From Candidatus Aldehydirespirator sp. (GTDB lineage Bacteria > Actinomycetota > Acidimicrobiia > Acidimicrobiales > Aldehydirespiratoraceae), in the NCBI GenBank assembly GCA_965204415.1, contig CBDBEL010000001.1, positions 514,562 to 578,561 on the forward strand: 64,000 nt of DNA, given 5' to 3'. Shown here one piece after another: positions 5,889 through 22,940 of this stretch. Under the pieces are notes generated by a model, which saw nothing but the letters and a program-made list of their open reading frames with translations, did no database searches and was not told the origin of the DNA. Made by a program: the position numbers and the translations under genes. The first letter of the stretch is position 1. Each line of letters begins with the position of its first letter.

Positions 5889-5923
5889 CCGCCACGATCA
5901 CCCGGGAGGCGGCGGCACCATGA
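5885..5923 (+). other. candidate relay mini-ORF (12 codons, MTATITREAAAP)
   Basis: ATG overlaps the livH stop (ATGA); its TGA overlaps the livM ATG 5920 (ATGA). Confidence 0.35.
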
Positions 5924-6927: not shown

Positions 6928-6936
6928 GGGCGCGGC

Positions 6937-7719: not shown

Positions 7720-8450
7720 GCGAGACCGTCCTGCGAGTCGAGGCCCTCGAGGCCGGCTACGGGGGCTTCCCGGTGCTGCACGGCGTCGACCTCGAGGTGA
7801 CCGCGGGCGAGATCGTCGCCGTGGTCGGGCCCAACGGTGCGGGCAAGTCGACGCTGCTGAAGACGATCTTCCGGCTGCTGCCGGCCCAGGGCGGGTCCGT
7901 GAGCTTCGAGGGGGCCGATCTGCAGCGCCACCCCACCCACAGCCTGGCCGAGCTCGGAATGGGCTACGTGCCCCAGGAGAACAACACCTTCCCCGACCTC
8001 AGCGTGCGCGACAACCTGTCGATCTCCCTGCGGGGATCCAGCCCCGTGGAGATCCGCCGGCGGGTTGCCGAGGTGGCCGAGTCGTACCCGGCTCTCAGCG
8101 ACCGCATGGCTCAGAACGCCAGCACGCTGTCGGGCGGCGAGCGCCAGATGCTGGCGCTGGCCAGCGCCATGATCACCGGGCCCCGCTTCCTGGCCCTCGA
8201 CGAGCCCACCACGGGCCTGGCGCCGTCCATCGTGCGGGAGCGCATCGACGACATCCTGCGCATCCGCGACTCGGGCACCACCCTCATGTGGGTGATCGAG
8301 GAGAGCCCGCTCATCTGCCTGCCCCACTGCGACCGGGTGTACGTGATGCAGGCCGGGGTTCTGGGCGATCCCGTGTCGAGCCGCGAGGTACTGGAGGACG
8401 CAGCCCTGCAGTCGCTCTTCTTCGGAGTCGACCACGCCGGCGGCGGCTAG
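7716..8450 (+). CDS. livF: ABC transporter ATP-binding protein (LivF family)
   Basis: ATG 7716 overlaps livG stop (ATGA). Walker A GPNGAGKST, LSGGERQ, LALDEP. Confidence 0.9.
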   Translation: MSETVLRVEALEAGYGGFPVLHGVDLEVTAGEIVAVVGPNGAGKSTLLKTIFRLLPAQGGSVSFEGADLQRHPTHSLAELGMGYVPQENNTFPDLSVRDNLSISLRGSSPVEIRRRVAEVAESYPALSDRMAQNASTLSGGERQMLALASAMITGPRFLALDEPTTGLAPSIVRERIDDILRIRDSGTTLMWVIEESPLICLPHCDRVYVMQAGVLGDPVSSREVLEDAALQSLFFGVDHAGGG

Positions 8451-8472
8451 AAGGCAACGGCTAGAAGGCGAC
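8445..8472 (+). repeat. 14-bp tandem duplication spanning the livF stop codon
   Basis: ggctagaaggcaac / ggctagaaggcgac. Confidence 0.8.
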
Positions 8473-8532
8473 GGCCGTCTGCATGCCGACTCGAACCTCT
8501 CGAACGTAGACCCACACCACAGGAGTGAGCCG

Positions 8533-9639
8533 ATGCCAATCGTCGTGCGCAAGATCCCCTTCGAGTTCGTCACCGACACCAGCGGACTGGTGGCCGAGAT
8601 AGAGAGCGGCTCGTTCACCGCCGACCAGATCATCGGCGTCATCGGCAAGACCGAGGGAAACGGCGGCGTCAACGACTTCTCTCGGATCCTGGCCGACCGG
8701 GTGCTGCGCGAGTTCCTCAACACCTACGGCACCCGCCCGCCGTCGGAGATCGACCAGATGCCGATCGTGTGGTCGGGAGGAACCGACGGCGTGATCGCTC
8801 CCCACATGAACGTCTTCGCCCGGGTCCCCGGCGACGGCGGCGCCAGCGACGAGAAGCGGCTGGCGGTGGGCGTGGCCATGTCCGAACCGATCCTGCCCGA
8901 GGAGATCGGCCGGCTGCCGATGGTGGAGAAGGTGGCCGAGGGAGTGAGGGCCGCGATGGCCGGCGCCGGCATCACCGACCCGGCCGACGTCCATTTCGTG
9001 CAGTCCAAGACCCCGCTGCTGACCCGCGAGCGCATCGAGGACGCCCGCAGCCGGGGCAAGACGGTGGCGCTGACCGACACCATGGAGTCGATGGCGGTGT
9101 CCAACGCCACCGCCGCGCTCGGCATCGGGTACGCGGTCGGCGAGTTCGACCTGCCCCGGCCCGAGCAGATCGCCAACGACCTCGACCTCTACTCGTCGGT
9201 CGCCTCGTGCTCGTCGGGCGTGGAGCAGGACGCCGGCCAGATCGTGGTGGTCGGCAACCGGGCCGGCGCGGGCGGGGACTTCCGCATCGGCCACTCCGTC
9301 ATGCGCGACGCCCTCGACTTCGACGGCATCTACGACGCCATCCGCTCGGCCGGCCTGGACCTTCCCGACCGGCCCCATCCCAGCGACCTGGGCGATGCCG
9401 TCGTGAACTGCTTCATCAAGTGCGAGACCGACCCGTCGGGACGGCTGCGGGGCCGCCGGCTGGTGTCGATCAACGACTCCGACATCCACCACACCCACCA
9501 CACCAAGGGCGCCGTGGGTGCGGTGGCGGCCGCCGCCATCGGGGATCCGGCCGTGTACTGCTCGGTCGCGGCCCTCCAGCAGGGCCCCGCCGGCGGCGGC
9601 ATGGTGGCCGCCATCGTGGACATGTCGAAGGCGCCTTGA
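8533..9639 (+). CDS. ring-opening amidohydrolase, cyanuric acid hydrolase/barbiturase (AtzD/TrzD) family
   Basis: 368 aa. Matches my recollection of AtzD along its length: GKTEGNGGVNDF, VWSGGTDG, HFVQSKTPLL, SCSSGVE, FIKCETDPSG, NDSDIHHTHH, QQGPAGGG. Confidence 0.85.
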   Translation: MPIVVRKIPFEFVTDTSGLVAEIESGSFTADQIIGVIGKTEGNGGVNDFSRILADRVLREFLNTYGTRPPSEIDQMPIVWSGGTDGVIAPHMNVFARVPGDGGASDEKRLAVGVAMSEPILPEEIGRLPMVEKVAEGVRAAMAGAGITDPADVHFVQSKTPLLTRERIEDARSRGKTVALTDTMESMAVSNATAALGIGYAVGEFDLPRPEQIANDLDLYSSVASCSSGVEQDAGQIVVVGNRAGAGGDFRIGHSVMRDALDFDGIYDAIRSAGLDLPDRPHPSDLGDAVVNCFIKCETDPSGRLRGRRLVSINDSDIHHTHHTKGAVGAVAAAAIGDPAVYCSVAALQQGPAGGGMVAAIVDMSKAP

Positions 9640-9676
9640 TCTTGAGGTAGATCTCTACTACAGCGGGGGAACTCCG

Positions 9677-10678
9677 ATGCTCGACCAGGCACAGCAGCTC
9701 GACCAGGCACTGAGGAACTACTGGCACCCGGTCGCGGTCTCCGAGGAGGTCACCACCGAGCCCATGCAGGTGAGGCTGCTGGGCGAGGCCATCGTGCTGT
9801 ACCGCGACGCCGAGGGACTGGTGGCGCTGCGCGACAAGTGCGTTCACCGCGGGGTGGCCCTGTCGGGCGGGTGCATCCGCGACGGGCGGCTGATGTGCCC
9901 CTACCACGGCTGGCAGTACGACCGCAGCGGCAGGGTGGCGTTCATCCCCGCGCTGGGTGCCGGGGGCTCCATACCGAGCCAGGCCAGAGTCGACCGCTAC
10001 CACGTGCGCGAGGATCACGGCGCGGTGTGGGTCGCACCCGCCGAGCCGGTGGCCGGCCTGCCTCCGTGGCCCGACGACGACTGGCGCAGCGACGACTGGC
10101 ACGTGTTCCTGGTGGGCACGTGGCGCTGGCAGTCGTCCGCGGGCCGGATGCTGGAGAACGCCATCGACTTCGCCCACTTCAACTTCGTGCACGAGGGCTT
10201 CACCGAGCTGGCCGACGGAGCGTTCATCAAGCCCTTCGAGATCGAGGTCACCGGCGACGGCATGCGGTACGCCTACGACGACAGCGTGCTGCTGCGCGAC
10301 TACACGCTTCACCTGCCGTTCACCCTTCACGACCGCAAGTCGGTGGTGGCCGTCAGCGGCGGCGTCACCTGGTCCGAGCAGGGCAAGTCGAAGGCCGGCG
10401 ACATCACCACCATCACCTTCATCGCCTCGCCCACCGACCGGGCCGAGACCCGCATCTTCTCGTGGCTGTCGCGCAACCACTCCTTCGACACCTCCGACGC
10501 CGACTTCGGGGCCGGGTTCCACGACGTGATGGAGCAGGACCGCATCGTGGTCGAGGCCCAGGATCCGGCCGAGCTGCCCCTCGACCCCCGCGAGGAGCTC
10601 CACCTCAAGCTGGCCGACTCCGGGTCGATCGTCTACCGGAAGCTATTACGCGAACTGGCCCCTGCCGCCTCCTCGTGA
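9677..10678 (+). CDS. Rieske [2Fe-2S] non-heme-iron oxygenase (single catalytic subunit type)
   Basis: ATG 9677 after GGGGGA. CVHRG..CPYHGW; Fe site ENAIDFAHFNFVH; paralog of 1-606. Confidence 0.9.
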   Translation: MLDQAQQLDQALRNYWHPVAVSEEVTTEPMQVRLLGEAIVLYRDAEGLVALRDKCVHRGVALSGGCIRDGRLMCPYHGWQYDRSGRVAFIPALGAGGSIPSQARVDRYHVREDHGAVWVAPAEPVAGLPPWPDDDWRSDDWHVFLVGTWRWQSSAGRMLENAIDFAHFNFVHEGFTELADGAFIKPFEIEVTGDGMRYAYDDSVLLRDYTLHLPFTLHDRKSVVAVSGGVTWSEQGKSKAGDITTITFIASPTDRAETRIFSWLSRNHSFDTSDADFGAGFHDVMEQDRIVVEAQDPAELPLDPREELHLKLADSGSIVYRKLLRELAPAASS

Positions 10679-10749
10679 CCGCTTCGATGCCTACCACCAA
10701 GTCTGTAGAGAAAACCGTCGTATAGAGCCGAGACCATGCAGATTCCGTC

Positions 10750-11259
10750 GTGCAGCCGATGAGCGGCCCATGGCTCGAACCCGATGAGTCTGCTGCCGTA
10801 AGCCTGAGGGTCAACGGGACCGAGCTGGAGGTTCGCGTCCCGCCGAGGCGGACCCTGGCCGACGTCATGCGCGACGCGGGCTTCACGAGCGTGCGCCTCG
10901 GCTGCGAGCACGGCGTGTGCGGAACCTGCACGATCCTGCTCGACGGCGCGGCCGTCCGCTCGTGCCTGATGCTGGCCGTCCAGGGGCGGGGCCACGACAT
11001 CGAGACGGTCGAGAGCCTCGCGGACGGCGACGAACTCAGCACCCTGCAGCAGGCCTTCGACGACAACGACGCCCTGCAGTGCGGGTTCTGCACCCCCGGC
11101 TTCCTGATGCTGATCGAGGGCCTCATGCGCTCGGAGCCGGAGGCGGACGGGGACAGGGTCCTCGAGGTGGTGTCATCGAATCTGTGCCGCTGCACCGGTG
11201 CCGTGCCCGTGGTCCGGGCTGCTCTGGACGCTCTCGCCGCAAGCCGGGACGGCCGGTGA
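10750..11259 (+). CDS. (2Fe-2S)-binding small subunit of molybdenum hydroxylase (CoxS-like)
   Basis: CEHGVCGTCT, CGFCTPGF, NLCRCTG; alternative start ATG 10759. Confidence 0.9.
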   Translation: MQPMSGPWLEPDESAAVSLRVNGTELEVRVPPRRTLADVMRDAGFTSVRLGCEHGVCGTCTILLDGAAVRSCLMLAVQGRGHDIETVESLADGDELSTLQQAFDDNDALQCGFCTPGFLMLIEGLMRSEPEADGDRVLEVVSSNLCRCTGAVPVVRAALDALAASRDGR

Positions 11260-12122
11260 AACCCGCCCCCTTCGCCTATGCGGCCGCGAGCACGCTCGAC
11301 GAGGCGGCCGAGCTGCTCGGCGAGGCCGGGGAGGACGCCAAGCTGCTGGCCGGCGGCCAGAGCCTGCTGCCTCTGCTGGCCTTCCGGCTGGCCCGTCCCA
11401 GCCACATCATCGACATCGGCGCCGTCGAGGACCTGGACTCGATCGACGAGCACGACGACGGGCACCTGAGCGTCGGCGCGCTGGTGCGGCACGCGACCCT
11501 CGAGCGGGCCGATCTGCGCGGCCCCTGGAAGGCGCTCGCAGAGGCGGCCTCGCTCATCGGCCATCTTCCCATAAGGGTCAGGGGGACCTTCGGCGGGAGC
11601 CTGGCCCATGCCGACCCGGCCGGCGAGCTGGGCGTGGTCGCCGCAGCGCTCGACGCCGAGATCGTCCTCAAGAGCGTCAGGGGCCTGCGCACCGTGCCGG
11701 TCGGCGGGTTCTTCCTGGCCCCGCTGACGACCGCGGCCGATGCCGACGAGATCGTCGTCGAGGCCCGGTTCCCGGCGCCGGGCCGCGGGTTCCGGTCGGT
11801 GTTCGAGGAGTTCAGCCCCCGGGCGGGCGATTTCGCCTACGCCTCGGTGGCGGCCGGGTGCAGGATGGCCGGCGACGGATCGGCCCATGACGTGAGGCTC
11901 GCTCTCGGCAGCGTCGGCCCCACGCCGTTGCGGGCCCGCGAGGCCGAGGAGGCGCTGTCGGGCTCGATGCTCGACGACACCGCCGTCGCCGAGGGCGCCC
12001 GCTTGGCCGCGGCTGCCTGCGACCCCTCGGCCGGCGACTGGCACGCGGGCGGCGACTACCGCCGGGCGCTCGTGGCGCACCTGGTGGAGCGGGCGCTGCG
12101 ACGGCTGAGGGAACCGGCATGA
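11256..12122 (+). CDS. FAD-binding medium subunit of molybdenum hydroxylase (CoxM-like)
   Basis: GTG 11256 overlaps the small-subunit stop (GTGA). KLLAGGQSLLPLL motif. Confidence 0.85.
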   Translation: MKPAPFAYAAASTLDEAAELLGEAGEDAKLLAGGQSLLPLLAFRLARPSHIIDIGAVEDLDSIDEHDDGHLSVGALVRHATLERADLRGPWKALAEAASLIGHLPIRVRGTFGGSLAHADPAGELGVVAAALDAEIVLKSVRGLRTVPVGGFFLAPLTTAADADEIVVEARFPAPGRGFRSVFEEFSPRAGDFAYASVAAGCRMAGDGSAHDVRLALGSVGPTPLRAREAEEALSGSMLDDTAVAEGARLAAAACDPSAGDWHAGGDYRRALVAHLVERALRRLREPA

Positions 12123-14413
12123 GCAAGCCCCGCAGCCGGCTCATCGGCAGCCCGGAGCCCCGACGCAAGAACCGCGGGCTGCTGAGGGGCGAGGGCGCCT
12201 ACGTGGCCGACATCCGCCTCGACGGCCAGCTGCACGCGAAGGTGGTGCGCAGCCCGGCGGCCCGCGGCCGGCTGCTGGGCGTCGACACCTCCGAGGCTCT
12301 GGAGACCCCCGGGGTCGTGGCCGCCCTCACCGCCGACGACATCGACGACTTCAAGATCCCGATCCGGCTCCCGTTCGCGGAGTCGCCCGAGGCGAACAGG
12401 GTGCTGCAGGCGCCGCTGGCCGCAGACGTGGTCCGCTACGTCGGTGAACCGGTCGCGGTGGTGGTGGCCGACGATCCCTATGTGGCCGAGGACGCGGCCG
12501 AGCATGTGGTGGTGGACATCGACGAGCTGGAGCCGGTCCTCGATCCCGCGACCGCGTCGGAGTCGTCGCGGCCCCTGGTGCACGAGCACTTCGGGAGCAA
12601 CACCGTCAACCGGCTCGCCTACCGGTACGGGGACGTCGACGGGGCGTTCGCGCGGGCCGACGTGGTGGTGCGCCGGCGGCTTCGGGTCCATCGCCTCGCG
12701 GCGGCGCCGATGGAGACCCGCGGGCTGGTCGCCGACTTCGACCCCGCATCGGGCGTGCTCACCGTGTGGGGCGGCGCCAAGGTCAAGCACTTCACCCGGG
12801 GCCTGCTCAGCAAGGCGCTGGGACTGGAGCCCGCCGACGTCCGTGTGATCGAGGTGGAGGTCGGGGGCGGGTTCGGGACTCGGGGCGAGCCCTACCCCGA
12901 GGATGTCCTCGTCGCGCTGCTGGCCCGGCGCCTGGAGAGGCCCGTGGCCTGGATCGAGGACCGCTGGGAGCACATGGTCGCCACCAACCACGCCCGGGAG
13001 CAGGAGCACGACTTCGAGCTCGCCGCCGACGCCCGCGGCCGGCTGCTGGGCTTCCGGGCGCGGGGCTGGTGCGATCAGGGCGCCTACGTGAGGACCCAGG
13101 GCCTGCTGCCGGCCGTGCTGCCCATGGTCCACTTCCCCGGCCCCTACCGGTGGCAGGCGTTCAGCATGGATCTCGACGCGGTGCTGACCAACCGGACCCC
13201 GGTGGGCACCTACCGCGGCCCGGGCATGACCGAGGCGACGTTCGTGCGCGAGCGCATGGTCGACATCGCGGCCGCGGAGCTGGGCATGGACCCGGCCGAC
13301 CTGCGGCGCCGGAACCTGATACCGGCCGAGTCGATGCCGTGCGGCTTCGCGCCGGGGCCCGGTTCGGGGGCGGTGATGCCGATCATGTACCAGGGCGGCG
13401 ACTTCGTCCGGACCTTCGATGAACTGCTGGCCACCGCCGGCTACGACCGGCTGCGCGCCGAGAGGCAGCAGGCCCGAGCCGGCGGACGCCACGCCGGCGT
13501 CGGCATCGCGGCCTACATCGAGTTCGCCGGAGCCGGGCCGTTCGAGGAGGTCGACGTGATCGGGGGGCCCGCCGGCGTCGTCGTCCGTGCCGGGGTCGCG
13601 TCGCTGGGCCAGGGCGTCGAGACCGCGCTGGCCCAGATCGCGGCGGAGCTCCTCGATGTGGCGCTTGACGACGTGACCGTCGAGTTCCACGACACCGACG
13701 AGATCCCGCAGGGCTTCGGAGCGTTCGCCAGCCGCTCGACCGCGCTGGCCGGCAACGCGATCGCGGCCGCGGTCGACGAGATGCGGGCCAGGGCCGCCCC
13801 GCTCTTGGGATGCGGCCCGGACGAAGTGGAGTTCCGCGGCGGGGCAGCCACCGCCCCCGGCGGCCGATCAGTGGGGCTCGACGAGATCGGCCCCGCCCGC
13901 GGCCGCTTCGAGACGGACGCTCTCACCGCCTCCTTCGGCGGGGCGGTCTGCTCGGTGTCGGTCGACCCCGGCGACGGCCGGGCCCGGGTGGACCGGTTCG
14001 TGCTGGCCCACGACGTCGGGCGGGCCGTCAACCCGAGACTGCTGAGGGGCCAGCTGGCGGGCGCCGCCGCGCAGGGAATCGGCGGAGCGCTCTTCGAGGA
14101 GGTCGCCTACGACGACAACGGGCAGCCGCAGTCGGTGACGCTCGCCGACTACATGATGCCCACCGCAGCCGAGCTGCCCGAAGTGGAGGTCGCCATCATC
14201 GAGCAGGGCAGCGGATCCAACCCGCTGGGCATCAAGGGCGGGGGGGAGGCCGGGATGGTCGCCTCGCTGGGCGCGGTCACCAACGGCGTGGCCGACGCGA
14301 TGGGCGAGGGGGCCGAGGTGCTAAGCAGTTCGGTCAGCCCGGCACGGGTCTGGCGGGCCCTGAGTCGGCGCGCCGCGCCGGCAGGGGCGCCCCGGGCAAC
14401 GGAGGAGGCATAG
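12119..14413 (+). CDS. molybdopterin-binding large subunit, xanthine dehydrogenase/CoxL family
   Basis: 764 aa; ATGA overlap with the medium subunit; VGTYRGPG, GGGFG, GIKGGGEAG motifs. Confidence 0.9.
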   Translation: MSKPRSRLIGSPEPRRKNRGLLRGEGAYVADIRLDGQLHAKVVRSPAARGRLLGVDTSEALETPGVVAALTADDIDDFKIPIRLPFAESPEANRVLQAPLAADVVRYVGEPVAVVVADDPYVAEDAAEHVVVDIDELEPVLDPATASESSRPLVHEHFGSNTVNRLAYRYGDVDGAFARADVVVRRRLRVHRLAAAPMETRGLVADFDPASGVLTVWGGAKVKHFTRGLLSKALGLEPADVRVIEVEVGGGFGTRGEPYPEDVLVALLARRLERPVAWIEDRWEHMVATNHAREQEHDFELAADARGRLLGFRARGWCDQGAYVRTQGLLPAVLPMVHFPGPYRWQAFSMDLDAVLTNRTPVGTYRGPGMTEATFVRERMVDIAAAELGMDPADLRRRNLIPAESMPCGFAPGPGSGAVMPIMYQGGDFVRTFDELLATAGYDRLRAERQQARAGGRHAGVGIAAYIEFAGAGPFEEVDVIGGPAGVVVRAGVASLGQGVETALAQIAAELLDVALDDVTVEFHDTDEIPQGFGAFASRSTALAGNAIAAAVDEMRARAAPLLGCGPDEVEFRGGAATAPGGRSVGLDEIGPARGRFETDALTASFGGAVCSVSVDPGDGRARVDRFVLAHDVGRAVNPRLLRGQLAGAAAQGIGGALFEEVAYDDNGQPQSVTLADYMMPTAAELPEVEVAIIEQGSGSNPLGIKGGGEAGMVASLGAVTNGVADAMGEGAEVLSSSVSPARVWRALSRRAAPAGAPRATEEA

Positions 14414-14415
14414 CC

Positions 14416-15366
14416 ATGATCGTCGACAGCCACGTCCACCTCTTCCCCCGGCAATGGCAGCCGGAGGGCCACATGCCGCCGGACCTCTTCGACGTGGCCC
14501 GCCAGCTCGAACGCATGGAGCAGGGCGGGATCACCACCTCGGTCGTCTCCGATCCCCACATCTGGTACGGGGACCTCGACACCTCCCACATCGAGCAGGT
14601 CCGTACCTACAACGACTTCGTCGCCGACCTTCAGCGCGACCACCCCGGAACCCTGGCCGGTCTGGCCACCGCGGTCCCATGGCGGGGCCGCGAGCACCTC
14701 GACGAGGCCCGGCGGGCCGCGGAGGAGCTCGGGCTGGCCGGCTTCGCGGTGCCGACGAGCGACCAGAACCGGTACCTCGACAGCGTCCCCGCCGAGTTCT
14801 GGGAGTACGCGTCGAGCATCGGGGCGCCGATCTTCATGCACCCCGGCGGCCAGACCGTCGGCCAGGACCTCATGGGCATCTACCGCATGGGCGAGGTGTG
14901 CGGGCGCCCGCTGGACATGACGGTCACGCTGTCCCGGTTCATCCTCACCGGCACCTACGAGCGGTTCCCGCAACTGGAGCTGCTGTGCGCGCACGCCGGC
15001 GGCGCCATCACCGCCATCGCCGACCGGCTCGACTTCGGGCACGAGCTGCGCGACTACGCCCCTCTCGGGCCGTGGGGCGAAGTCGAGCTGGTCGAGCCGC
15101 CGTCGAGCCACGTCGGGAAGCTCTTCCTCGACACGGTCACGTTCGGGCCCCGGACGCTGAGGATGGCTCTGGAGACCGTCGGCTCCGAGCACGTCTGCTT
15201 CGGCACCGACTGCCCGCCGGTGCCGTGGACCGTCGAGAGGCACCTCGCGGTCGTGGACGGACTGGACCTGAGCGAAGACCAGCGCGCCGACGTCCTCGGA
15301 CGCAACGCTGAGCGGCTCTTCCTCACCCAGGCAGCCGAGCAGGCAGGGGGCGGGCAGGATGCCTGA
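14416..15366 (+). CDS. amidohydrolase_2 (ACMSD/LigW-type metal-dependent hydrolase or decarboxylase) family protein
   Basis: MIVDSHVHLFP (HxH metal site); ~316 aa; FGTDCP near the C-terminus. Confidence 0.8.
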   Translation: MIVDSHVHLFPRQWQPEGHMPPDLFDVARQLERMEQGGITTSVVSDPHIWYGDLDTSHIEQVRTYNDFVADLQRDHPGTLAGLATAVPWRGREHLDEARRAAEELGLAGFAVPTSDQNRYLDSVPAEFWEYASSIGAPIFMHPGGQTVGQDLMGIYRMGEVCGRPLDMTVTLSRFILTGTYERFPQLELLCAHAGGAITAIADRLDFGHELRDYAPLGPWGEVELVEPPSSHVGKLFLDTVTFGPRTLRMALETVGSEHVCFGTDCPPVPWTVERHLAVVDGLDLSEDQRADVLGRNAERLFLTQAAEQAGGGQDA

Positions 15367-16378
15367 GTACACCCCGACCGACGCCCGGGCGTGGGCGCTG
15401 GAGAACCTCGTGGGGTGCTGCGGCTGTGTCCTGCCCACGTTCACCGGCGACCTGTCGACGCTGAACGAGGCCGCCATCCGCCACGACGTCGACATGGAGC
15501 GCGGGCTCGGGATGCGAGCCGTCCTCGTCGTGAGCGAGGGCGGCACCACCCTTGAGGAGTACCGGCGGCTGCTGGAGATCGTCGCGGACGCGGCCGGCGA
15601 CCTCATGGTGGTGGTGCAGGCGTCGCAGCCGACCTGGGACCTCCAGCAGCTCACCATCGAGTGGGGCGCCGAGCTGGGCGCCGACCTGGTGCTGCCGTCC
15701 TACCCGATGACGTTCTACCCGCGGACCCTCGACGAGCTCTACGAGGCCAGCAAGGCGATGATCGACCGCTCGCCGCTGGGCGTGCTGCTGTTCGCCATCG
15801 ACCAGTGGAACTTCGCCCGGCTGCACCCGGCCGCGTTCCCGGTAGAGCTGCTGGAGAGGCTCGCCGCCGACTGCGGAATGCTGGTCGGGGTCAAGAACGA
15901 GATCGGACTGCCCTACACGGGCGGCATGGACGACGTCTTCCGGCTCCTCGGCGACCAGATCGTGGTGACCGACCCGATGGAGTCGAACGCGCCGATCTGG
16001 ATCCGCCACTACGGCATGAAGTACATGGGGACCTCCAACTACGAGGCCTTCGGGCCCCGCATCCCCCGGATGCTCGAAATGCTCGGCGACCCCGCCACCT
16101 GGGACGAGGGGATGGAGCTGTACTGGCAGAACACGCCGGTCCGCAAGGCCAACAGCGCCACCGTGAGCCCGGTGGTGGCCACCACCGGGATGGTGCCCCG
16201 GAGCATCTGGAAGTACCAGGGCTGGCTCAACGGCTTCAACGGCGGGCCGCTGCGGGGTCCGCTGGCCCGCATCAACGCGGCCCAGATGGGCATGATCCGC
16301 AAGGCCGCGGTCGATGCCGGCCTAGACGTCACCGAGGATCCAGACGAGGCGTTCTGGGTCGGAAGGAACCCCGCGTGA
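15359..16378 (+). CDS. dihydrodipicolinate synthase/NAL-family class I aldolase-like protein
   Basis: 339 aa; Schiff-base Lys context VGVKNEIG; 8-nt overlap with the upstream gene. Confidence 0.7.
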   Translation: MPEYTPTDARAWALENLVGCCGCVLPTFTGDLSTLNEAAIRHDVDMERGLGMRAVLVVSEGGTTLEEYRRLLEIVADAAGDLMVVVQASQPTWDLQQLTIEWGAELGADLVLPSYPMTFYPRTLDELYEASKAMIDRSPLGVLLFAIDQWNFARLHPAAFPVELLERLAADCGMLVGVKNEIGLPYTGGMDDVFRLLGDQIVVTDPMESNAPIWIRHYGMKYMGTSNYEAFGPRIPRMLEMLGDPATWDEGMELYWQNTPVRKANSATVSPVVATTGMVPRSIWKYQGWLNGFNGGPLRGPLARINAAQMGMIRKAAVDAGLDVTEDPDEAFWVGRNPA

Positions 16379-16427
16379 CCATCGACGGTTACGAGGCGTT
16401 CTGGGCGGACAGGAACCCCGCGTGACC
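16344..16427 (+). repeat. junction duplication, two 37-nt copies with period 47
   Basis: acgaggcgttctgggtcggaaggaaccccgcgtgacc at 16344-16380 versus acgaggcgttctgggcggacaggaaccccgcgtgacc at 16391-16427. Confidence 0.85.
16375..16425 (+). other. candidate relay mini-ORF (16 codons, VTIDGYEAFWADRNPA)
   Basis: GTG overlaps the stop of 15359-16378 (GTGA); its TGA overlaps GTG 16422 (GTGA). Confidence 0.4.
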
Positions 16428-17429
16428 GCGCTGGGAGGCCCCCCGCTGTTCCTCGACGGCGAGCTCGTCGATGCGCTCGCCTCGGTGGAGGTCGGGCTGG
16501 AAGCGGCCCGGGTGTCGGCGGGCGCCGAAGCCGTGACCGGACGGGTGCAGATCGCGGACGACCGGACCTGGATGCGGGTGCTGGCCGGCATCCTGCCCGA
16601 GCTCGGCATAGTCGGCTACAAGGAGTTCCACCGGGTCGGGCAGCGGGTGCGGTACCACGTGAGCATCTTCGAGCGCGACACCGCCGACATGATCGGCGTC
16701 GTCGACGGTCGGCGCATCACCAGCCTGCGCACCGCCTCCACCGCTGCGCTGGCGTTCGAGCACGTCGACGACGGCCGGCCCAAGAAGCTGGCGGTGATCG
16801 GCAGCGGCGAGGAGGCCAAGGAGGGACTGCGGGCGGTGGCCGCAGTGTCGACCCTGGCCGAGGTGGCCGTGTTCAGTCCCACACCGGCCAACCGCCAGGC
16901 GTTCTGCGAGGTGCACGGCCCGGTCGCGGGGGTGCCCGTCTACCCGGTGGAGTCGGTCGACGCCGCGCTGGCCGGCGCCCAGCAGGCGTACGTGGCGACC
17001 TCCTCGGCCGGCCCGGCGTTCCTGGAAGCACGCCAGGTCGCGCATCTCGACATGCTGGCCGGGATCGGATCGACCCGGCCCGACCAGCGGGAGCTAATCG
17101 GCGACGTCTTCACCGGGGCATCCCAGGTGGTCTTCGACTGCGCCGACGCCCGCCACGAGCCGGGAGACGTGATCGACGCGGTCGATCGGTTCGGGTTCGA
17201 CCCCGACGGCGCCCTGTTGTTGAAGGACTGGCTGGAGTCGCCCTACGAGGCGACCGGCGAGGGTCCGCTGGTGTTCAAGTCGATCGGCACCGTCGAGCAG
17301 GACCTCGCCCTCGCCCACCGCCTGCTGGTCGCCGCCCGCGAGCAGGGACTGGGGATCCCGGCCCCCGAGATCGGGTCGCTGCGCATCATGCGGGACCCAG
17401 AGGCCGAGCGAGGAGGACAACAGGCATGA
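16422..17429 (+). CDS. ornithine cyclodeaminase/mu-crystallin family protein
   Basis: GRRITSLRTASTAALA motif, Rossmann LAVIGSGEEAK; GTG start. Confidence 0.8.
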   Translation: MTALGGPPLFLDGELVDALASVEVGLEAARVSAGAEAVTGRVQIADDRTWMRVLAGILPELGIVGYKEFHRVGQRVRYHVSIFERDTADMIGVVDGRRITSLRTASTAALAFEHVDDGRPKKLAVIGSGEEAKEGLRAVAAVSTLAEVAVFSPTPANRQAFCEVHGPVAGVPVYPVESVDAALAGAQQAYVATSSAGPAFLEARQVAHLDMLAGIGSTRPDQRELIGDVFTGASQVVFDCADARHEPGDVIDAVDRFGFDPDGALLLKDWLESPYEATGEGPLVFKSIGTVEQDLALAHRLLVAAREQGLGIPAPEIGSLRIMRDPEAERGGQQA

Positions 17430-17560
17430 TGCGGCGAAACGCACTGAGCGAGGCCGTGGCCCGAGCGGCCCGTGAGCGCAGCGAACAAGAGCGGGAAAGC
17501 CCCCTCTGCACCGCGAAGCGACGGCATCGGCGCACCGGGCGGGACCCAGAGGCCGAGCGG
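17398..17560 (+). repeat. interspersed intergenic repeat, copy A (core 17446-17496)
   Basis: Core gagcgaggccgtggcccgagcggcccgtgagcgcagcgaacaagagcggga, preceded and followed by a gaggccgagcg box; boundaries approximate. Confidence 0.8.
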
Positions 17561-17578
17561 GCGGGACGACCGCGATGA
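17426..17578 (+). other. candidate relay mini-ORF (50 codons) reading through interspersed repeat copy A
   Basis: ATG overlaps the OCD-like stop (ATGA); its TGA 17576-17578 overlaps the next ATG 17575. Confidence 0.3.
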
Positions 17579-17616
17579 TGCGGCCATCTGCGCACCGTGC
17601 GGGACTAGGTTCCTGA
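17575..17616 (+). other. candidate relay mini-ORF (13 codons, MMRPSAHRAGLGS)
   Basis: Starts in ATGA overlap with the previous mini-ORF; stops 17 nt before ATG 17634. Confidence 0.3.
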
Positions 17617-17633
17617 GACGAGGGGGTCGCGTC

Positions 17634-18971
17634 ATGGCACTGATCGACACCGACGGCGGGTTCCGGGTCAGCCGCCGCATCTACCACGACCCCGAGATCC
17701 ACCGCCGCGAGCTCGACTCGATCTTTAAGAAGTCGTGGTTCTTCGTGGGGCACGCCTCGGAGATCCCCGAGCCCGGCGACTACGTGACCAGACCCCTCGG
17801 CGTCGACCCGGTGATCGTGAACCGGGACCGCGACGGCCGCGTCCACGTGATGCTGAACTCGTGCTCGCACCGGGGCGTGAAGATCTGCCGGTCGGGGCGA
17901 GGCAACACCAAGGCCCACCGGTGCTCCTACCACGGCTGGGCCTACGGACTCGACGGGGCGTGCCGGGCGGTGACCTACGAGAAGGAGGTGTACGGCCCGG
18001 ACTTCGACAAGTCGCGCTTCAACCTGCGCTCGGCCCGGGTCGAGACGCTGCACGGGCTGATCTTCGCCACCTGGGACCACCGGGGACCGTCGCTGGCCGA
18101 GGCCCTGGGCCCCATGACCTACTACTTCGACGCGCTGTTCGGGAAGTTCGACCGCGGTTTCGAGGTGATGGGCTCGCCGGTGCGGACCCGCATCGCCGCC
18201 AACTGGAAGGCCGAGACCGAGAACCTCTCCGGCGACGGCTACCACACCATGATCACCCACGAGACCGCGCTGCGGTTCGGGCTCTTCCCGAGCCCCGAGG
18301 ACGTGGCCCCCTACGGCGATCCGGTCGGCCCGAAGTTCCCCGGTCGCACGGTGCAGTGCGGCAACGGCCACACCATCCGGATCCAGCATCTGCCCATCGA
18401 GACCCGCCCGCCCGGCTTCCTCGGCTACCCCGAGGAGCTCTGGGGTGAGATCGAGCAGAACCTCAAGCCGGGCCAGGTCGACATCATGGCCCGCACTTCG
18501 GTCACCCACGGCAGCGTGTTCCCCAACCTGTCGTTCCTGGAGAACTTCAAGACCGCCACCGACGGGCCCGGCTCGATGTGCCGCTACACCCGGCTCACGC
18601 TGAAGGTCCCGATCGACGAGGGCTCGACCGAGATCTGGTGGTGGCATCTCGTGCCGGCCGACGCCTCGGAGGCATGGAAGGAGCGTTCCCAGCGGGCCTA
18701 CCTGAGGACCAACGGCCCCGGAGGGATGTTCGAGCTCGACGACAACGAGAACTTCCTCGGAATGGCCGAGGCCAACAGCGGACCGGTCGGGCTCGACCAG
18801 CACTACGACTATGTGGCCGGCACCCACCATCCCGACGCCCACGGCCTGGAGTGGCCCGGCCATGTGCAGGACGCCGACCGCAGCGAGCACACGCTGCGCG
18901 GCTTCCTCACCGAGTGGCGCCGCCGCATGGAGTTGACCGCAGTCTCCGAGCCGGCCGGGTCCGGCCCATGA
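17634..18971 (+). CDS. aromatic ring-hydroxylating dioxygenase alpha subunit
   Basis: ATG 17634 after GAGGGGG. Rieske CSHRG..CSYHGW; Fe site GDGYHTMITH. Confidence 0.9.
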   Translation: MALIDTDGGFRVSRRIYHDPEIHRRELDSIFKKSWFFVGHASEIPEPGDYVTRPLGVDPVIVNRDRDGRVHVMLNSCSHRGVKICRSGRGNTKAHRCSYHGWAYGLDGACRAVTYEKEVYGPDFDKSRFNLRSARVETLHGLIFATWDHRGPSLAEALGPMTYYFDALFGKFDRGFEVMGSPVRTRIAANWKAETENLSGDGYHTMITHETALRFGLFPSPEDVAPYGDPVGPKFPGRTVQCGNGHTIRIQHLPIETRPPGFLGYPEELWGEIEQNLKPGQVDIMARTSVTHGSVFPNLSFLENFKTATDGPGSMCRYTRLTLKVPIDEGSTEIWWWHLVPADASEAWKERSQRAYLRTNGPGGMFELDDNENFLGMAEANSGPVGLDQHYDYVAGTHHPDAHGLEWPGHVQDADRSEHTLRGFLTEWRRRMELTAVSEPAGSGP

Positions 18972-19522
18972 CGAGGCTGCGCTGGGTCCATCCGACGACC
19001 ACCGGAGACCCGGCGCCGCTGCAGGTCCATCACGAGCTGGGCCTGTGCTACGCCTACGAGGCCGAGCTGCTCGACGAGTGGCGCCTCGACGAATGGCTCG
19101 ACCTGGTCGACGAGGGCTTCACGTACCTGGTGCCGGTGCCGCTGGTGACCGACCAGCACCCGCAGCTCGGCTACGACCCGTCCGCTCTGTTCATGGACGA
19201 GACCCGTGACTCGATCGCAGAGAACTGGGCGGCCCGGCTGACCGGCGAGAACATCGCGGTGTCGTGGGCTGACCGGCCTGCGGTGCGCACCCGCCGGTTC
19301 CTGTCGGCGCTGCGGGTCCGGTCCACGGACAAGCCTGAGGAATATCTGGCCCGAATGAATGTCCAGGTGGCAATGGTGCGCCAAGGCAGTCAGCCCGGCG
19401 AGATGATCGGCGAGCGATTCGACATCGTCCGCCGGGCGGGAGACTCGTTCCGCATCATGTCGCGGTTCGTGGTCCTGCTGAGCGCGATAGTGGACGCGCC
19501 CCGCCCCCGGACCATCCTCTGA
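18968..19522 (+). CDS. aromatic ring-hydroxylating dioxygenase beta subunit
   Basis: 184 aa; ATGA overlap with the alpha subunit; SnoaL/NTF2-like size and position. Confidence 0.8.
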   Translation: MTRLRWVHPTTTGDPAPLQVHHELGLCYAYEAELLDEWRLDEWLDLVDEGFTYLVPVPLVTDQHPQLGYDPSALFMDETRDSIAENWAARLTGENIAVSWADRPAVRTRRFLSALRVRSTDKPEEYLARMNVQVAMVRQGSQPGEMIGERFDIVRRAGDSFRIMSRFVVLLSAIVDAPRPRTIL

Positions 19523-19532
19523 GCGGTGAAGA

Positions 19533-19630
19533 CGAGAGCCATGAGACTGCGCAGGATCGACGCTCGGGTGCGCTGCGACGGCGCAGCCAGCCCGAGGCAG
19601 AGGCGAGAGCCATGAGGCTACGCAGGATCG
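19533..19630 (+). repeat. junction duplication, period 71
   Basis: cgagagccatgagactgcgcaggatcg at 19533 versus cgagagccatgaggctacgcaggatcg at 19604; weaker similarity continues about 20 nt further. Confidence 0.8.
19541..19615 (+). other. candidate relay mini-ORF (24 codons, MRLRRIDARVRCDGAASPRQRREP)
   Basis: Duplicate of the extradiol dioxygenase start; its TGA overlaps the true ATG 19612 (ATGA). Confidence 0.4.
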
Positions 19631-20529
19631 GCTTCGGAGTGCGCGACGTCGAGGCTCAGGCCCGTTTCCTGCGGGAGGCGTTCGCCCTCGTGCCCGAGAA
19701 CGCCGGAGCCGGCGGTGCCCGGTTCTCTGCTCCGGGATCGGTCGAGCATGCCGTCACGTCGCTGCGGCCGGCCCCCGTCGACCGGGTCGATGAGGTGGCA
19801 TTCGCGGTCGAGAGCACCGATCAGGTCGACCATATGCACGCTCACCTCGTCGAGCTGCATGCCGACGTGGTCGACCGTCCCGGCCCGACCTCCGAAGGCG
19901 GCTACGGCTTCGAGGTGTTCGATCCCGAGGGCCACCTGCTGTCCATAGCGGCCAGCAGCGATGCGCGGACCCCGCCCGGCCATGAGACAGGGCACGGCGT
20001 GCCGCTCGACCTGAGCCACGTCGTGTTCGACAGTCCCGACATCGGCGCCCTCTCGGGCTGGTACTGCGCCGCGCTCGGCTTCCGGGTCACCGACTGGCTA
20101 GAGGACAAGCTCGTCTTCATGACCACCAGCCGCCACCACCACCAGATCGCGCTGGCCACCTCCGCCAACTCGGGCCTGAACCATGTCGCCTACGAGTGCG
20201 CCGACATCGACGACTTCATGCGAGCCACCGGCCGCACCATGCGGCTGGGACATGCGCTGCTGTGGGGACCAGGGCGGCACGGGCCCGGCGACAACACGTT
20301 CGCCTACTTCCGCTCGCCGGCCGGCTTCATCTGCGAGTTCACCACCGGACTCGAGCTCACCGACAGCCCGGACTGGGTCGTGCGCACCTGGGAGTCAGTG
20401 CCCGAGCAGGCGGACCTGTGGGGCACGTCCAATCCCCGCCCCAACGACGCCTTCGGCACCACCGCAGACCCCGGCCTAGGAATCCTCCCCAACAGCCCCG
20501 AGGAACTCGAACTCCTATCAGCCCGCTGA
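19612..20529 (+). CDS. extradiol ring-cleavage dioxygenase (two-domain VOC, catechol 2,3-dioxygenase-like)
   Basis: 305 aa; HHHQIAL, LNHVAYE, GPGRHGPGDNTFAYF, EF motifs. Confidence 0.85.
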   Translation: MRLRRIGFGVRDVEAQARFLREAFALVPENAGAGGARFSAPGSVEHAVTSLRPAPVDRVDEVAFAVESTDQVDHMHAHLVELHADVVDRPGPTSEGGYGFEVFDPEGHLLSIAASSDARTPPGHETGHGVPLDLSHVVFDSPDIGALSGWYCAALGFRVTDWLEDKLVFMTTSRHHHQIALATSANSGLNHVAYECADIDDFMRATGRTMRLGHALLWGPGRHGPGDNTFAYFRSPAGFICEFTTGLELTDSPDWVVRTWESVPEQADLWGTSNPRPNDAFGTTADPGLGILPNSPEELELLSAR

Positions 20530-20530
20530 C

Positions 20531-22822
20531 TCAGGCCGTCACCCGGATCGACCGGCAGAGGGTGTGTAGGTGTTCGGGGGTTAGGGGTAGGGAAGTGACT
20601 GCGCCGGGGCGGTTGAGGGCGTCGTCTATGGCGGACGCGATGACGGCGCCGCAGGCGTTGGTGCCGCCCTCGCCGGCGCCTTTGACGCCGAGCGGGTTGA
20701 GCGGGCTGGGGGCGTCCTCGGACAGCAGGATCTCCAGGTCGGGCATCTCGGCCGCGGTGGGCATCAGGTAGTCCATGAACGTGGTCGCCTGGGGCTGGCC
20801 GATCTCGTCGTAGCTGAAGTCCTCGAACAGCGCCCCGCCGAAGCCCTGGGCCGCGCCGCCGACGATCTGGCCCTCCACCAGCATCGGGTTGATGGCCCGC
20901 CCGATGTCGTAGGCGATCACGTAGCGCTCGATCCCGACGCTGCCGGTGCCGGGATCGAGCACCACCACCCCGGCGTGCAGCCCGTACGGGTAGTTCATGT
21001 GGCTGGTCAGGTACCACTCCTCGGTCACCAGCCCCGGCCGGCCGTCCGCGTAGGGCGACGCCGGGCCGAGAGCCGACGCGACCTCGCCCAGCGACACCGC
21101 CTGCGCGGGCGAGCCGACCACGCTGACGGCACCGTCGACCAGCTCCAGGTCGTCGGGGCTGGCCTCGAGCATCTCGGCCGCGACCTCGATGGCCCGCTGT
21201 CGCAGCGCGACGCTGGCTTCGTGGGTGGCGGTGCCCGCCATCACGGTCGCCCGGCTGGCGAAGGCGCCCATCCCGTGGGACATCTGATCGGTCTGGCCGT
21301 GCACCACCGAGATCCGGTCCAGGCCCACGCCGAGGGCCTCGGCGCAGATCTGGGCCATGACCGTCTCGAATCCCTGGCCCACCGACGCCTCTCCGGTGGT
21401 GACGGTCACGCAGCCCGACGGGTCCACCTCGACCCGGCTCCCCGCGAAGGGACCCAGGCCCGACTTCTCGACGAAGAAGCCGAGCCCCAGCCCGACCAGC
21501 TCGCCGGCCGCCCGCCGCTCGGCCAGCGACCGGGTCAGGGCCGGATAGTCGATGTGGCCCAGGACGCGGTCGAGCATCGTCTCGTACTGGCCGGAGTCGT
21601 AGACGACCGGCGTGCCGAGCGCGTCGATGCCGCGCTCGAACGGCATCTCGGTGGATGCGATCAGGTTGCGGCGCCGTATCTCGGCCCGGTCGACTCCCAG
21701 CTCGGCCGCGACCGCGTCGAGGGCCCGCTCCCGCACGAAGGTGCTCTCGTAGCGCCCCGGCGCCCGGTAGGTGCCGGCCGGGGTCTTGTTCGACAGGCGC
21801 ACCCGGCCGGTCACCCGGTAGTTCGGGATCCGGTACGGGCCCGGCAGCATGGCCGCGGCCAGGGTCGCCACCGTCGCTCCGTGGGTGCGCACGTAGGCGC
21901 CCTGATCGCTTACGAACTCCGCCTCCAGGCCCTCGATCACCCCCGAGGCGTCGGTGGCCACCCGCAGGCGGTGGCGCTGGTCGCGGGAGTGGTTGGCCGC
22001 CACCAGATGCTCCTGGCGGTCCTCGATCCACTTCACCGGCCGGCCCAGCCGCAGTGCCGCCAACGCCACCAGCACGTCCTCGGGGTACAGCTCGCCCCGC
22101 ACGCCGAACCCGCCCCCCACATGGGCCTCGCGCAGCACCACCCGCGAGGGCGGCAGGCCCAGCATCCTGGCCAGGGCGTCGCGGTTCTGGAACGGCACCT
22201 TGGCCGCGCCCAGGAACTCGAGCGTCTGCGTGGTCCGGTGGTGCACGGCCAGCGCACCCCGGCACTCCAGAGGCACGCCGGTGTGCCGTCCCACGCTGAA
22301 CTCGGCCGCGAGCACGTGCTCGGCCCGGGCGAAGGCCGCGTCGACGTCTCCGGTCTGCTCGGTGAACACGTAGGCCTCGGTGTCGAGCCGCCCGTCGAAG
22401 TCGCCGAGCTCACCGGCGGCGTCGAGCACCGGGGCCAGCTCCGACACCTCCACGACCACAGCCTCCGCGCCGTCCTCGGCGGTGTAGGGATCGGCTGCGA
22501 ACACCGCCGCGACGGGCTCGCCCACGTAGCGCACCCGCTCCTGGGCCAGGATCGGCTGGCGGTACGGCACCATCTGGTCGGCGCCCACCTGCCGGAAGTC
22601 GATGGGACCGACATCGGAGACGTCGGCGCCTGTCCAGACCGCGGCCACACCGGGCACGGCCAGCGCCCCGGCGGCGTCTATGGACTCGATCGTGCCGTGG
22701 GCCGCGTGCGATCTGACGATCCGCATGTGGAGCTGGTGCGGAAGGTCGATGTCGGCGACGAAGCGGCCCTCGCCCCGCAGCAGGGGCCGGTCCTCGAGAC
22801 GGAGAACCGACTCGCCGATCAC
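20531..22822 (-). CDS. molybdopterin-binding large subunit, xanthine dehydrogenase/CoxL family (second L of the operon)
   Basis: 763 aa; GTG start; AGTYRAPG, GGGFG, GVKGAGEGG. Confidence 0.9.
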   Translation of the reverse strand: MIGESVLRLEDRPLLRGEGRFVADIDLPHQLHMRIVRSHAAHGTIESIDAAGALAVPGVAAVWTGADVSDVGPIDFRQVGADQMVPYRQPILAQERVRYVGEPVAAVFAADPYTAEDGAEAVVVEVSELAPVLDAAGELGDFDGRLDTEAYVFTEQTGDVDAAFARAEHVLAAEFSVGRHTGVPLECRGALAVHHRTTQTLEFLGAAKVPFQNRDALARMLGLPPSRVVLREAHVGGGFGVRGELYPEDVLVALAALRLGRPVKWIEDRQEHLVAANHSRDQRHRLRVATDASGVIEGLEAEFVSDQGAYVRTHGATVATLAAAMLPGPYRIPNYRVTGRVRLSNKTPAGTYRAPGRYESTFVRERALDAVAAELGVDRAEIRRRNLIASTEMPFERGIDALGTPVVYDSGQYETMLDRVLGHIDYPALTRSLAERRAAGELVGLGLGFFVEKSGLGPFAGSRVEVDPSGCVTVTTGEASVGQGFETVMAQICAEALGVGLDRISVVHGQTDQMSHGMGAFASRATVMAGTATHEASVALRQRAIEVAAEMLEASPDDLELVDGAVSVVGSPAQAVSLGEVASALGPASPYADGRPGLVTEEWYLTSHMNYPYGLHAGVVVLDPGTGSVGIERYVIAYDIGRAINPMLVEGQIVGGAAQGFGGALFEDFSYDEIGQPQATTFMDYLMPTAAEMPDLEILLSEDAPSPLNPLGVKGAGEGGTNACGAVIASAIDDALNRPGAVTSLPLTPEHLHTLCRSIRVTA

Positions 22823-22890
22823 GGCACCCCCGCGGGCCGATCCGCAGACGGGACCGACTCGCCGATCACGGCGCCCCCGCGGGCCGATCC
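22807..22890 (-). repeat. junction duplication, two 37-nt copies with period 47
   Basis: ccgactcgccgatcacggc(a/g)cccccgcgggccgatcc at 22807-22843 and 22854-22890, one mismatch. Confidence 0.9.
22819..22869 (-). other. candidate relay mini-ORF (16 codons, VIGESVPSADRPAGVP)
   Basis: Duplicate of the large-subunit start; its TGA overlaps the true GTG 22822 (GTGA). Confidence 0.4.
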
Positions 22891-22940
22891 AGGGACAGAC
22901 CAGAGGCCGCGGCCCGGAAGCCGAACGTGTCTGCGGTCAC
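22866..22940 (-). other. candidate relay mini-ORF (24 codons)
   Basis: GTG 22940 overlaps the CoxS-like stop (GTGA); its TGA overlaps GTG 22869. Confidence 0.4.

Follow-up and report, generated by a model that had tools for sequence, protein, structure and literature searches.

The window analysed here is the whole of a 64,000-nucleotide stretch of DNA (G000:C1:514562-578561) from an assembly of Candidatus Aldehydirespirator with four contigs, 4.9 Mb and a G+C content of roughly 70%, and our subject is a ring-opening amidohydrolase of the AtzD/barbiturase family encoded on its + strand at 8533-9639, together with the catabolic genes that surround it. The genus (formerly UBA11606) comprises one sponge-symbiotic and one free-living lineage (PMC11706023). 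Several related metagenome-assembled genomes (MAGs) from the same genus and from Acidimicrobiales appear to be derived from sponge metagenomes, judged by their bin names.

Gene families were assigned with Pfam and NCBIfam models and structural relatives through sequence matches to the PDB, with ESM Atlas language-model features as a further source. The hydrolase gene lies in a run of 16 same-strand genes that spans 3700-20529 (~17 kb). Upstream of it are five genes with Pfam matches for a Liv-type ABC importer of the HAAT family, encoding the binding protein LivK (3700-4941, Peripla_BP_6), the permeases LivH (5019-5888) and LivM (5920-6927) and the ATPases LivG (6937-7719) and LivF (7716-8450). 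Downstream follow a Rieske non-haem-iron oxygenase gene, a CoxS-CoxM-CoxL set for a molybdenum (Mo) hydroxylase, an Amidohydro_2 gene, a DapA-like gene, an ornithine cyclodeaminase (OCD)-like gene, the alpha and beta subunit genes of a ring-hydroxylating dioxygenase (RHD) and an extradiol dioxygenase gene. An earlier interpretation made from the letters of the DNA, which we call the sequence-only reading, had named these gene types, and all of them were recovered, on the + strand and with positions that agree or nearly agree with its own.

The run is tightly packed, with gaps from LivK to the extradiol gene of 77, 31, 9, -4, 82, 37, 71, -4, -4, 2, -8, 43, 42, -4 and 89 nt. No terminator-like site was predicted in any of these 15 intergenic gaps, and from the packing and the terminator scan co-transcription of the 16 genes is plausible. 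The sequence-only reading had described the genes as joined by overlaps or relay open reading frames (ORFs); the overlaps are present, and small ORFs do bridge four of the gaps, in a mechanical sense.

Family and active-site residues of the hydrolase

The hydrolase matches PF09663 with 440.3 bits (cut-off 25) over residues 5-363 and TIGR02714 with 458.9 bits (cut-off 153.1), which puts it in the Toblerone-fold family. The three Ser/Lys pairs that had been claimed for it are all intact (K39/S81, K159/S227 and K296/S344) and, together with R51 (the Arg of domain A) and E231 (the Glu beside the central Lys), are invariant across 84 aligned homologues. These homologues come from 82 fetched loci and the window; the loci were gathered via 8-residue patterns of the query hydrolase, so that the sample is biased towards its relatives.

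Cyanuric acid hydrolases (CAHs) are recognised by two arginines, R194 and R324 of AtzD, and by the motif S-G-G-x-E-x-Q-G-P-x-G-G-G-P (PMC9118981); the same arginine pair is numbered R195/R325 by Peat et al. (PMC3758960). In the window hydrolase the two arginine columns hold N191 and K325, and the motif position reads SVAALQQGPAGGGM, which departs from SGGxExQGPxGGGP. Because N191, K325 and SVAALQQGPAGGGM all fail the published residue criteria, the hydrolase is not classed as a CAH, and on these criteria a role in cyanurate hydrolysis is excluded. The protein does pass NF052395, the NCBIfam CAH equivalog, with 419.9 bits against a cut-off of 360. As the residues say otherwise, the model seems to extend too far, taking in the barbiturase branch. 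JGI calls some close homologues CAH and others barbiturase, which brings a risk of systematic misannotation.

Compared with AtzD/TrzD and the CAHs of Moorella, Azorhizobium and Bradyrhizobium (4BVQ, 5T13, 6BUM, 4NQ3 and 6DHJ), the window hydrolase has the same Toblerone fold and Ser-Lys pairs, and its Thr321 is as in AtzD, but it is without the R194, R324 and SGGxExQGP motif that the CAHs carry. Against solved structures it scores 453.5 bits with the barbiturase 5HWE versus 226-300 bits with the CAHs, and the outgroup of the hydrolase tree, AtzD with a plasmid CAH, sits on a long branch. Group VI barbiturases, which turn barbiturate into ureidomalonate and are inhibited by cyanurate, are defined by Asn195, His321, Lys325, Val345 and Ser/Ala346 in AtzD numbering (Peat et al. 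2013, PMC3758960). Four of these five positions agree in the window hydrolase (N191, K325, V345 and A346), while position 321 is Thr instead of His. In addition, Gln349 stands where the xHQGP segment of canonical barbiturases has His. On the question of grouping, which the sequence-only reading had raised, the 5HWE score, the residues and the tree all place the enzyme on the barbiturase side of the AtzD/barbiturase family and not with the CAHs. By the same residues it is not a canonical barbiturase, being a member of a sister subclade that we denote T/Q for its Thr321 and Gln349. The barbiturase of Rhodococcus erythropolis (EC 3.5.2.1, 5HWE, Group VI) is of the same fold and family, aligns over the full length and shares all Ser-Lys pairs; it has an active-site His321 and the metal-loop His of xHQGP, whereas the window hydrolase has Thr and Gln, and the neighbours of the two genes differ as well, those in the window being a Liv importer and NdmA-like oxygenases.

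The distinction between the two residue types is sharp. In the 84-sequence alignment T321/Q349 is found in all 53 homologues that are at least 65% identical to the window hydrolase and H321/H349 (H/H) in all 31 at 60-64% identity. When the tree is rooted on AtzD and the plasmid CAH, the 53-row T/Q clade is monophyletic with a Shimodaira-Hasegawa-like approximate likelihood ratio test (SH-aLRT) support of 97; this and the other trees were made with quick or FastTree methods. The clade is spread over Actinomycetota, Pseudomonadota and Verrucomicrobiota, and no description of it was found in the searchable literature. H/H-type sequences score 490 and 590 bits against 5HWE, higher than the 453.5 bits of the window hydrolase, and the characterised barbiturase therefore belongs with the H/H type. 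Three genomes of the same genus (G003, G006 and G019) each carry both a T/Q and an H/H copy, which argues for different roles of the two types.

We made several further observations on these families. The second copy in G003 (L074:3368-4456) is of the H/H type, and H/H genes (L065-L067, L073, L074, L084 and L085) lie between a PucR-type regulator gene and genes for FdrA-like and AllG-like proteins, the former with a CoA-ligase fold and the latter an oxamate carbamoyltransferase subunit. This context suggests that at H/H loci the ring-opened ureido acid would be processed via carbamoyl transfer and not by simple hydrolysis. A third family member in another genome of the genus (G010:C1:3543331-3544431), 44% identical to the window hydrolase, is possibly of the CAH type or of another group. 

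Two proteins recur beside T/Q-type genes. One is an ORF of ~400-460 amino acids with three tandem RidA/L-PSP-like repeats, divergent from the adjoining T/Q-type homologue (L026:8510-10240, - strand), with equivalents in L028, L030, L033, L035, L036, L038, L040, L045, L057 and L064; in L064 the repeats cover about residues 18-129, 191-263 and 302-374. The Toblerone fold itself is thought to derive from the concatenation of three RidA/YjgF units. The other is a protein of ~185 amino acids encoded directly 3' of the hydrolase gene in many T/Q loci outside the genus (L028, L030, L031, L035, L036, L040, L042, L045-L048, L051, L052, L055, L056 and L064), at the position that the Rieske gene occupies in the window. 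By eye it resembles carboxymuconolactone decarboxylase/AhpD, and its stop-to-stop ORF gave no Pfam match.

Conserved and variable parts of the island

We compared the 14 closest loci, whose hydrolases are 87-96% identical to that of the window. LivKHMGF lies directly 5' of the hydrolase gene in all 14 (74-99% identity) and an NdmA-like Rieske gene directly 3' of it in 13. In the window this Rieske gene (9677-10678, +) encodes an oxygenase alpha subunit only, of NdmA/SxtT type, with Pfam Rieske and VanA_C domains. A second, divergent NdmA-like Rieske gene, which the window start cuts (1-651, -; Pfam), is kept upstream in 12 of the 14 loci, the contigs of the other two being too short to reach it. 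The two Rieske proteins are about 40% identical to each other, and the genome continues past the 1-651 gene with RHD alpha/beta-like genes (upstream DNA L095: Rieske and Ring_hydroxyl_B). The best PDB matches of the 9677-10678 protein are NdmA (126 bits), SxtT (126) and NdmB (91), which makes it a candidate heterocycle N-demethylase or hydroxylase. Both window genes share the Rieske and VanA_C-type architecture of the methylxanthine N-demethylases NdmA/NdmB (6ICK, 6ICL) and the saxitoxin hydroxylases SxtT/GxtA, and they form a paralogue pair as NdmA and NdmB do; the similarity to NdmA/NdmB is moderate, and no NdmD-like reductase gene is nearby. For the ligand of LivK, PDB and NCBIfam gave weak, uninformative matches only.

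The second part, from the CoxS to the extradiol gene (10750-20529), is accessory. In a survey of 25 genomes of the genus, which as related genomes are non-independent observations, a hydrolase of at least 92% identity is present in 11, and six of these carry the block; among the loci compared, the window, L014-L017 and L019 have it. The DHDPS (dihydrodipicolinate synthase)-like gene of the block follows the same distribution, being found in six of the 11 hydrolase-positive genomes and in none of the other genus genomes. Wherever the assembly permits a check the block stands between the Rieske gene and the gene for CoxL2, one of the two large subunits of a convergent Mo operon, and in all five other block-bearing genomes it ends with the extradiol gene. 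In the block-less loci L011, L013, L021, L022 and L024 the convergent CoxL2-CoxS2-CoxL3-CoxM2 operon comes next after the Rieske gene. Two genomes show an intermediate state: G004 (G004:C1:1859300-1891000) and G006 (G006:C13:65000-89000; together L097-L100) keep CoxL1 fragments (68-75% identity, in two pieces) beside the Rieske gene. The next 13-23 kb are unrelated DNA, matching neither the island genes nor the families most often found as neighbours in the other loci. These fragments suggest that the block is probably older, with more than one event of loss or decay, and the Rieske-CoxL2 interval seems to have had its content replaced repeatedly; no direct repeats that would mark insertion scars were found at the block borders in the junction alignment. 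The 17-kb super-operon of the sequence-only reading is thus not a conserved unit, since relatives have lost its accessory CoxSML-to-extradiol portion or retain it in decayed form.

The proteins of the block can be assigned to enzyme classes. CoxS (10750-11259, iron-sulfur (FeS) subunit and first gene of the block), CoxM (11256-12122, FAD subunit) and CoxL1 (12119-14413, Mo subunit, hereafter L1) have Pfam matches, and the best PDB relative of L1 is the large subunit of 6-hydroxypseudooxynicotine dehydrogenase (KdhL, 512 bits), followed by quinoline 2-oxidoreductase (Qor, 373 bits). The Amidohydro_2 protein (14416-15366, in the frame of ORF 13810-15366; PF04909, 97.7 bits) is of the ACMSD/LigW/IDCase non-oxidative decarboxylase type: its top PDB relatives run from ACMSD (70 bits) to IDCase, and almost every one is a decarboxylase. 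With ACMSD and the LigW, gamma-resorcylate and iso-orotate decarboxylases it has PF04909 in common, but with scores of at most 70 bits and no equivalog match. ORF 14454-15311 was rejected as a gene, since it has no family match and the Amidohydro_2 gene occupies another frame. The divergent DHDPS/DapA-like protein (15359-16378) has no Pfam or NCBIfam match; from a PDB match to DHDPS (E=0.006) and ESM Atlas features (0.96 to DHDPS-family clusters) it is probably a class I aldolase or hydratase-aldolase. The protein encoded at 16422-17429 is an ornithine cyclodeaminase/mu-crystallin-type NAD(P)-dependent enzyme (PF02423, 60 bits), for which every NCBIfam match is below cut-off. The RHD alpha (17472-18971) and beta (18968-19522) subunits, both identified by Pfam, are nearest to HcaE (227 bits) and the HcaF family (92 bits) in NCBIfam, each below cut-off. 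The last protein (19612-20529, Pfam Glyoxalase) is a two-domain type I extradiol dioxygenase, and the HpaD and catechol 2,3-dioxygenase models both fall below cut-off.

The third part is the convergent Mo operon (20531-26694), which lies outside the coordinates of the sequence-only reading. Its genes, all with Pfam matches and on the - strand, are CoxM2 (25834-26694), CoxL3 (23413-25761), CoxS2 (22937-23416) and CoxL2 (20531-22822), and they encode one FAD subunit, one FeS subunit and two different large subunits (L2 and L3). Only 1 nt separates the stop codons of the extradiol and CoxL2 genes (20527-20533), so that a terminator would not fit between them; where relatives are block-less, CoxL2 abuts the Rieske gene in this way. 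Within the genus, orthologues of CoxL2 and CoxL3 (at least 88% identity) share one distribution with the hydrolase, the same 11 genomes. The sequence-only reading had taken the three-subunit CoxSML enzyme as the Mo partner of the hydrolase, a place that the two-large-subunit operon takes instead as the partner that is constant within the genus.

The best PDB match of L2 is KdhL (652 bits), and L3 matches mycobacterial CoxL (490 bits) and Qor (471 bits). L1, L2 and L3 all keep the GGGFG-type and catalytic-Glu (GGGE) motifs. The form I CoxL loop VAYRCSFR with its Cu-binding Cys is replaced by PVGTYRGPGMTE in L1, PAGTYRAPGRYE in L2 and PIAPYRGVSRPV in L3, none of which contains Cys, and the NCBIfam carbon monoxide dehydrogenase models are below cut-off for the window CoxL proteins. 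The window enzymes have the Mo/FeS/FAD three-subunit architecture of KdhLMS (7DQX) and Qor (1T3Q); unlike these, the convergent operon has two different large subunits per FeS and FAD subunit. No Rieske, Cox or Amidohydro_2 protein of the window reached an NCBIfam equivalog cut-off.

The association of hydrolases with Mo enzymes extends beyond the genus. Neighbour genes were taken as stop-to-stop ORFs and clustered by all-ORF BLAST, with removal of shadow ORFs. Among 83 barbiturase-branch loci, ABC ATPases are neighbours in 45, CoxL-family proteins in 41 (within 10 kb), CoxS and CoxM in 30 each, and Amidohydro_2 and VanA-type Rieske proteins in 18 each. CoxL2/CoxL3-type orthologues (56-61% identity) adjoin T/Q hydrolase genes in other Acidimicrobiia, in Burkholderiales and in a Verrucomicrobiales MAG, while the Mo large subunits beside H/H genes belong to other clades, with about 26-34% identity to those of the window. 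The operon is widespread in soil metagenomes (L101-L175, 53-64% identity), and most metagenome loci picked by CoxL3 similarity have the order M-L3-S-L2. Liv-type ABC genes are often near the operon in metagenome loci and Amidohydro_2 sometimes, and in one variant Amidohydro_2 stands between CoxS and CoxL3 and CoxM was not detected.

The remaining genes lie at the two ends of the island. Between the second Rieske gene and the importer is a variable block (698-3599), whole in only two (L015 and L016) and partial in another two (L012 and L018) of the 14 closest loci. It encodes a luciferase-like oxidoreductase (698-1684, -) that matches F420-type models, a cupin (1745-2143, -), a PcaD-like alpha/beta hydrolase (1941-3026, +) and an F420-type PPOX-class split-barrel protein (3093-3599, -); the two F420-type proteins hint at F420-dependent reductions in some versions of the island. 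Beyond the Mo operon are genes for a RidA-family protein (about 26840-27250, +; NCBIfam Rid family, 91 bits, below cut-off), a cupin (27387-27767, -; Pfam) and two MFS transporters (28552-29862 and 29904-31184, -; Pfam). A DEAD-box helicase gene begins at 31222, and the end of the island was accordingly placed near 31.2 kb. We considered whether the luciferase-like, alpha/beta-hydrolase, split-barrel and RidA genes represent a Rut pathway and rejected this, as the oxidoreductase and split-barrel proteins are of F420-type classes and not RutA/RutF, and the RutC/RutD models are far below cut-off for the proteins of the upstream block and the RidA protein.

Proposed function and alternative readings

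Gene content, assignment to family and subclade, the residues of the active site, modularity and co-occurrence are what we observed; we infer in which order the reactions would run, how intermediates would pass from module to module and what kind of substrate would be used. We consider it somewhat probable that the locus is a mosaic N-heterocycle catabolic island built of separable modules. The conserved core (3700-10678 and 1-651) would import a compound, modify it with the NdmA-like oxygenases and open a barbiturate-like ring with the hydrolase, which would use the Ser-Lys chemistry of Toblerone-fold cyclic amide hydrolases. Its target would most likely be a barbiturate-like, non-threefold-symmetric cyclic ureide or imide; cyanuric acid would not be a substrate, and the plain barbiturate of the uracil/thymine route probably would not be one either. 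The block at 10750-20529 would contribute optional (hetero)aromatic hydroxylation, dioxygenation, meta-cleavage, decarboxylation and aldol-type steps, and the Mo hydroxylase with two large subunits (20531-26694) could create the oxo groups that the hydrolase needs.

To our knowledge cyanurate and barbiturate are the only substrates of Toblerone-fold hydrolases. It is possible, although we would sooner expect otherwise, that the T/Q subclade represents a third substrate class, acting on a substituted or N-methylated barbiturate-like ring, or on another cyclic imide or ureide made by successive Mo hydroxylations, and in this lineage with its sponge symbionts serving to degrade N-heterocycles of the surroundings or the host; the NdmA-like enzymes would then carry out N-demethylation and the accessory block would widen the range. 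Methylated pyrimidine, pteridine or pyridine compounds would be examples of such N-heterocycles.

Several points weigh against the mosaic interpretation. No enzyme for the ring-opened product, such as a ureidomalonase-like amidase, was seen from the window start to 31 kb or in 20 kb upstream, where no ureidomalonase reference sequence was available for comparison. A reductase that could serve the Rieske oxygenases was likewise not found in the island. The changes at positions 321 and 349 might be neutral, in which case the enzyme would be an ordinary barbiturase, and the hydrolase tree does not contain the characterised Rhodococcus sequence, whose place is taken from bit scores and signature residues. 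The genus-wide co-occurrence of the hydrolase with the Mo operon may mirror the inheritance of one island. In a reverse test with 80 metagenome loci picked by CoxL3 similarity, one (L120) had a barbiturase homologue in reach, or ~1 in 11 of those with long flanks; the two-large-subunit operon therefore mostly operates in the absence of such a homologue. Around a dozen T/Q hydrolase genes, in turn, lack a Mo hydroxylase gene within 10 kb. The reverse test rules out an obligate coupling of the hydrolase with the two-large-subunit operon, and together with the Mo-less T/Q loci it indicates that the coupling is facultative.

The sequence-only reading had suggested the oxidative pyrimidine pathway, in which uracil or thymine is imported, a CoxSML-type dehydrogenase forms (5-methyl)barbiturate and an ordinary barbiturase opens the ring. 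The hydrolase does belong to the barbiturase branch with four of the five signature residues (N, K, V and A), three-subunit Mo/FeS/FAD enzymes adjoin it as CoxL-family genes do in about half of the barbiturase-branch loci, and no paper was found in the searchable literature that assigns genes to uracil/thymine dehydrogenase. We nevertheless judge this route improbable for the window. The hydrolase is in the T321/Q349 clade and not in the H321/H349 clade nearest the characterised enzyme, and in the three genomes with both types it is the H/H copy that stands in the PucR/FdrA-like/AllG-like context. Three Mo/FeS/FAD hydroxylase sets are present at the locus, with large subunits unlike those beside canonical barbiturases, although no reference sequence of a uracil/thymine dehydrogenase was found for comparison. 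The distinct subclade, the coexisting canonical copies and the other-clade Mo enzymes beside them make the uracil/thymine route less likely. The route also gives no role to the NdmA-like oxygenases, the decarboxylase or the dioxygenases, and neither a ureidomalonase candidate nor an amidase-signature, FdrA/AllG-like or comparable gene was seen in the DNA from the window start to 31 kb or in 20 kb upstream.

A second suggestion of the sequence-only reading was a benzo-fused or substituted N-heterocycle degraded by all 16 genes in one linear route, in which dioxygenases and aldolase remove the carbocycle, decarboxylase and Mo enzyme trim the product and the hydrolase opens a trione-like ring. 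The idea fits the enzyme classes: naphthalene and quinoline routes use an RHD, an extradiol dioxygenase and a DHDPS-type hydratase-aldolase, and the RHD, extradiol dioxygenase and DHDPS-type protein of the block match these classes of bicyclic upper pathways. It is also in keeping with the tight one-strand packing without terminators, with the finding of the block in hydrolase-positive genomes only and always directly downstream, with a diverged set of RHD alpha/beta, OCD and CoxL genes that adjoins a T/Q hydrolase in a separate lineage (L025), and with the recurrence of Amidohydro_2 and CoxSML genes beside T/Q hydrolases in Burkholderiales. It is weakened by the remaining five of the 11 hydrolase-positive genomes, which have no block or fragments only, yet keep the Liv-hydrolase-Rieske genes and the two-large-subunit operon. 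The core persists where the block is absent and therefore works without it. Moreover, no cis-dihydrodiol dehydrogenase or isomerase was identified among the island genes, and L1 is closer to ring hydroxylases (KdhL, Qor) than to aldehyde oxidoreductases. We regard such a single route as quite unlikely.

Automatic annotation would make the gene a CAH and its locus one that scavenges nitrogen from s-triazines or cyanurate. This is highly improbable, since the NF052395 pass and the JGI name of cyanuric acid amidohydrolase for several close homologues stand against the replacement of both defining arginines, the unmatched motif, solved CAHs that score ~150 bits under the barbiturase, the outgroup position of AtzD and the plasmid CAH, and the failure to find a biuret hydrolase, AtzEG, AtzH or an allophanate hydrolase in the island.

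The mosaic island with a T/Q hydrolase in its core is the interpretation that we find best supported. No characterised cluster with such a combination of genes was found in the searchable literature, in agreement with what the sequence-only reading had supposed. For the missing uracil/thymine dehydrogenase genes the canonical H/H loci are better candidates than the window locus. A CAH equivalog that misnames T/Q proteins would inflate surveys of s-triazine degradation potential. Two co-varying changes at or near the active site in a large, coherent sister clade suggest a further specificity among Toblerone-fold hydrolases, and the T/Q clade possibly catalyses a hydrolytic ring opening not yet described for N-heterocycle catabolism.

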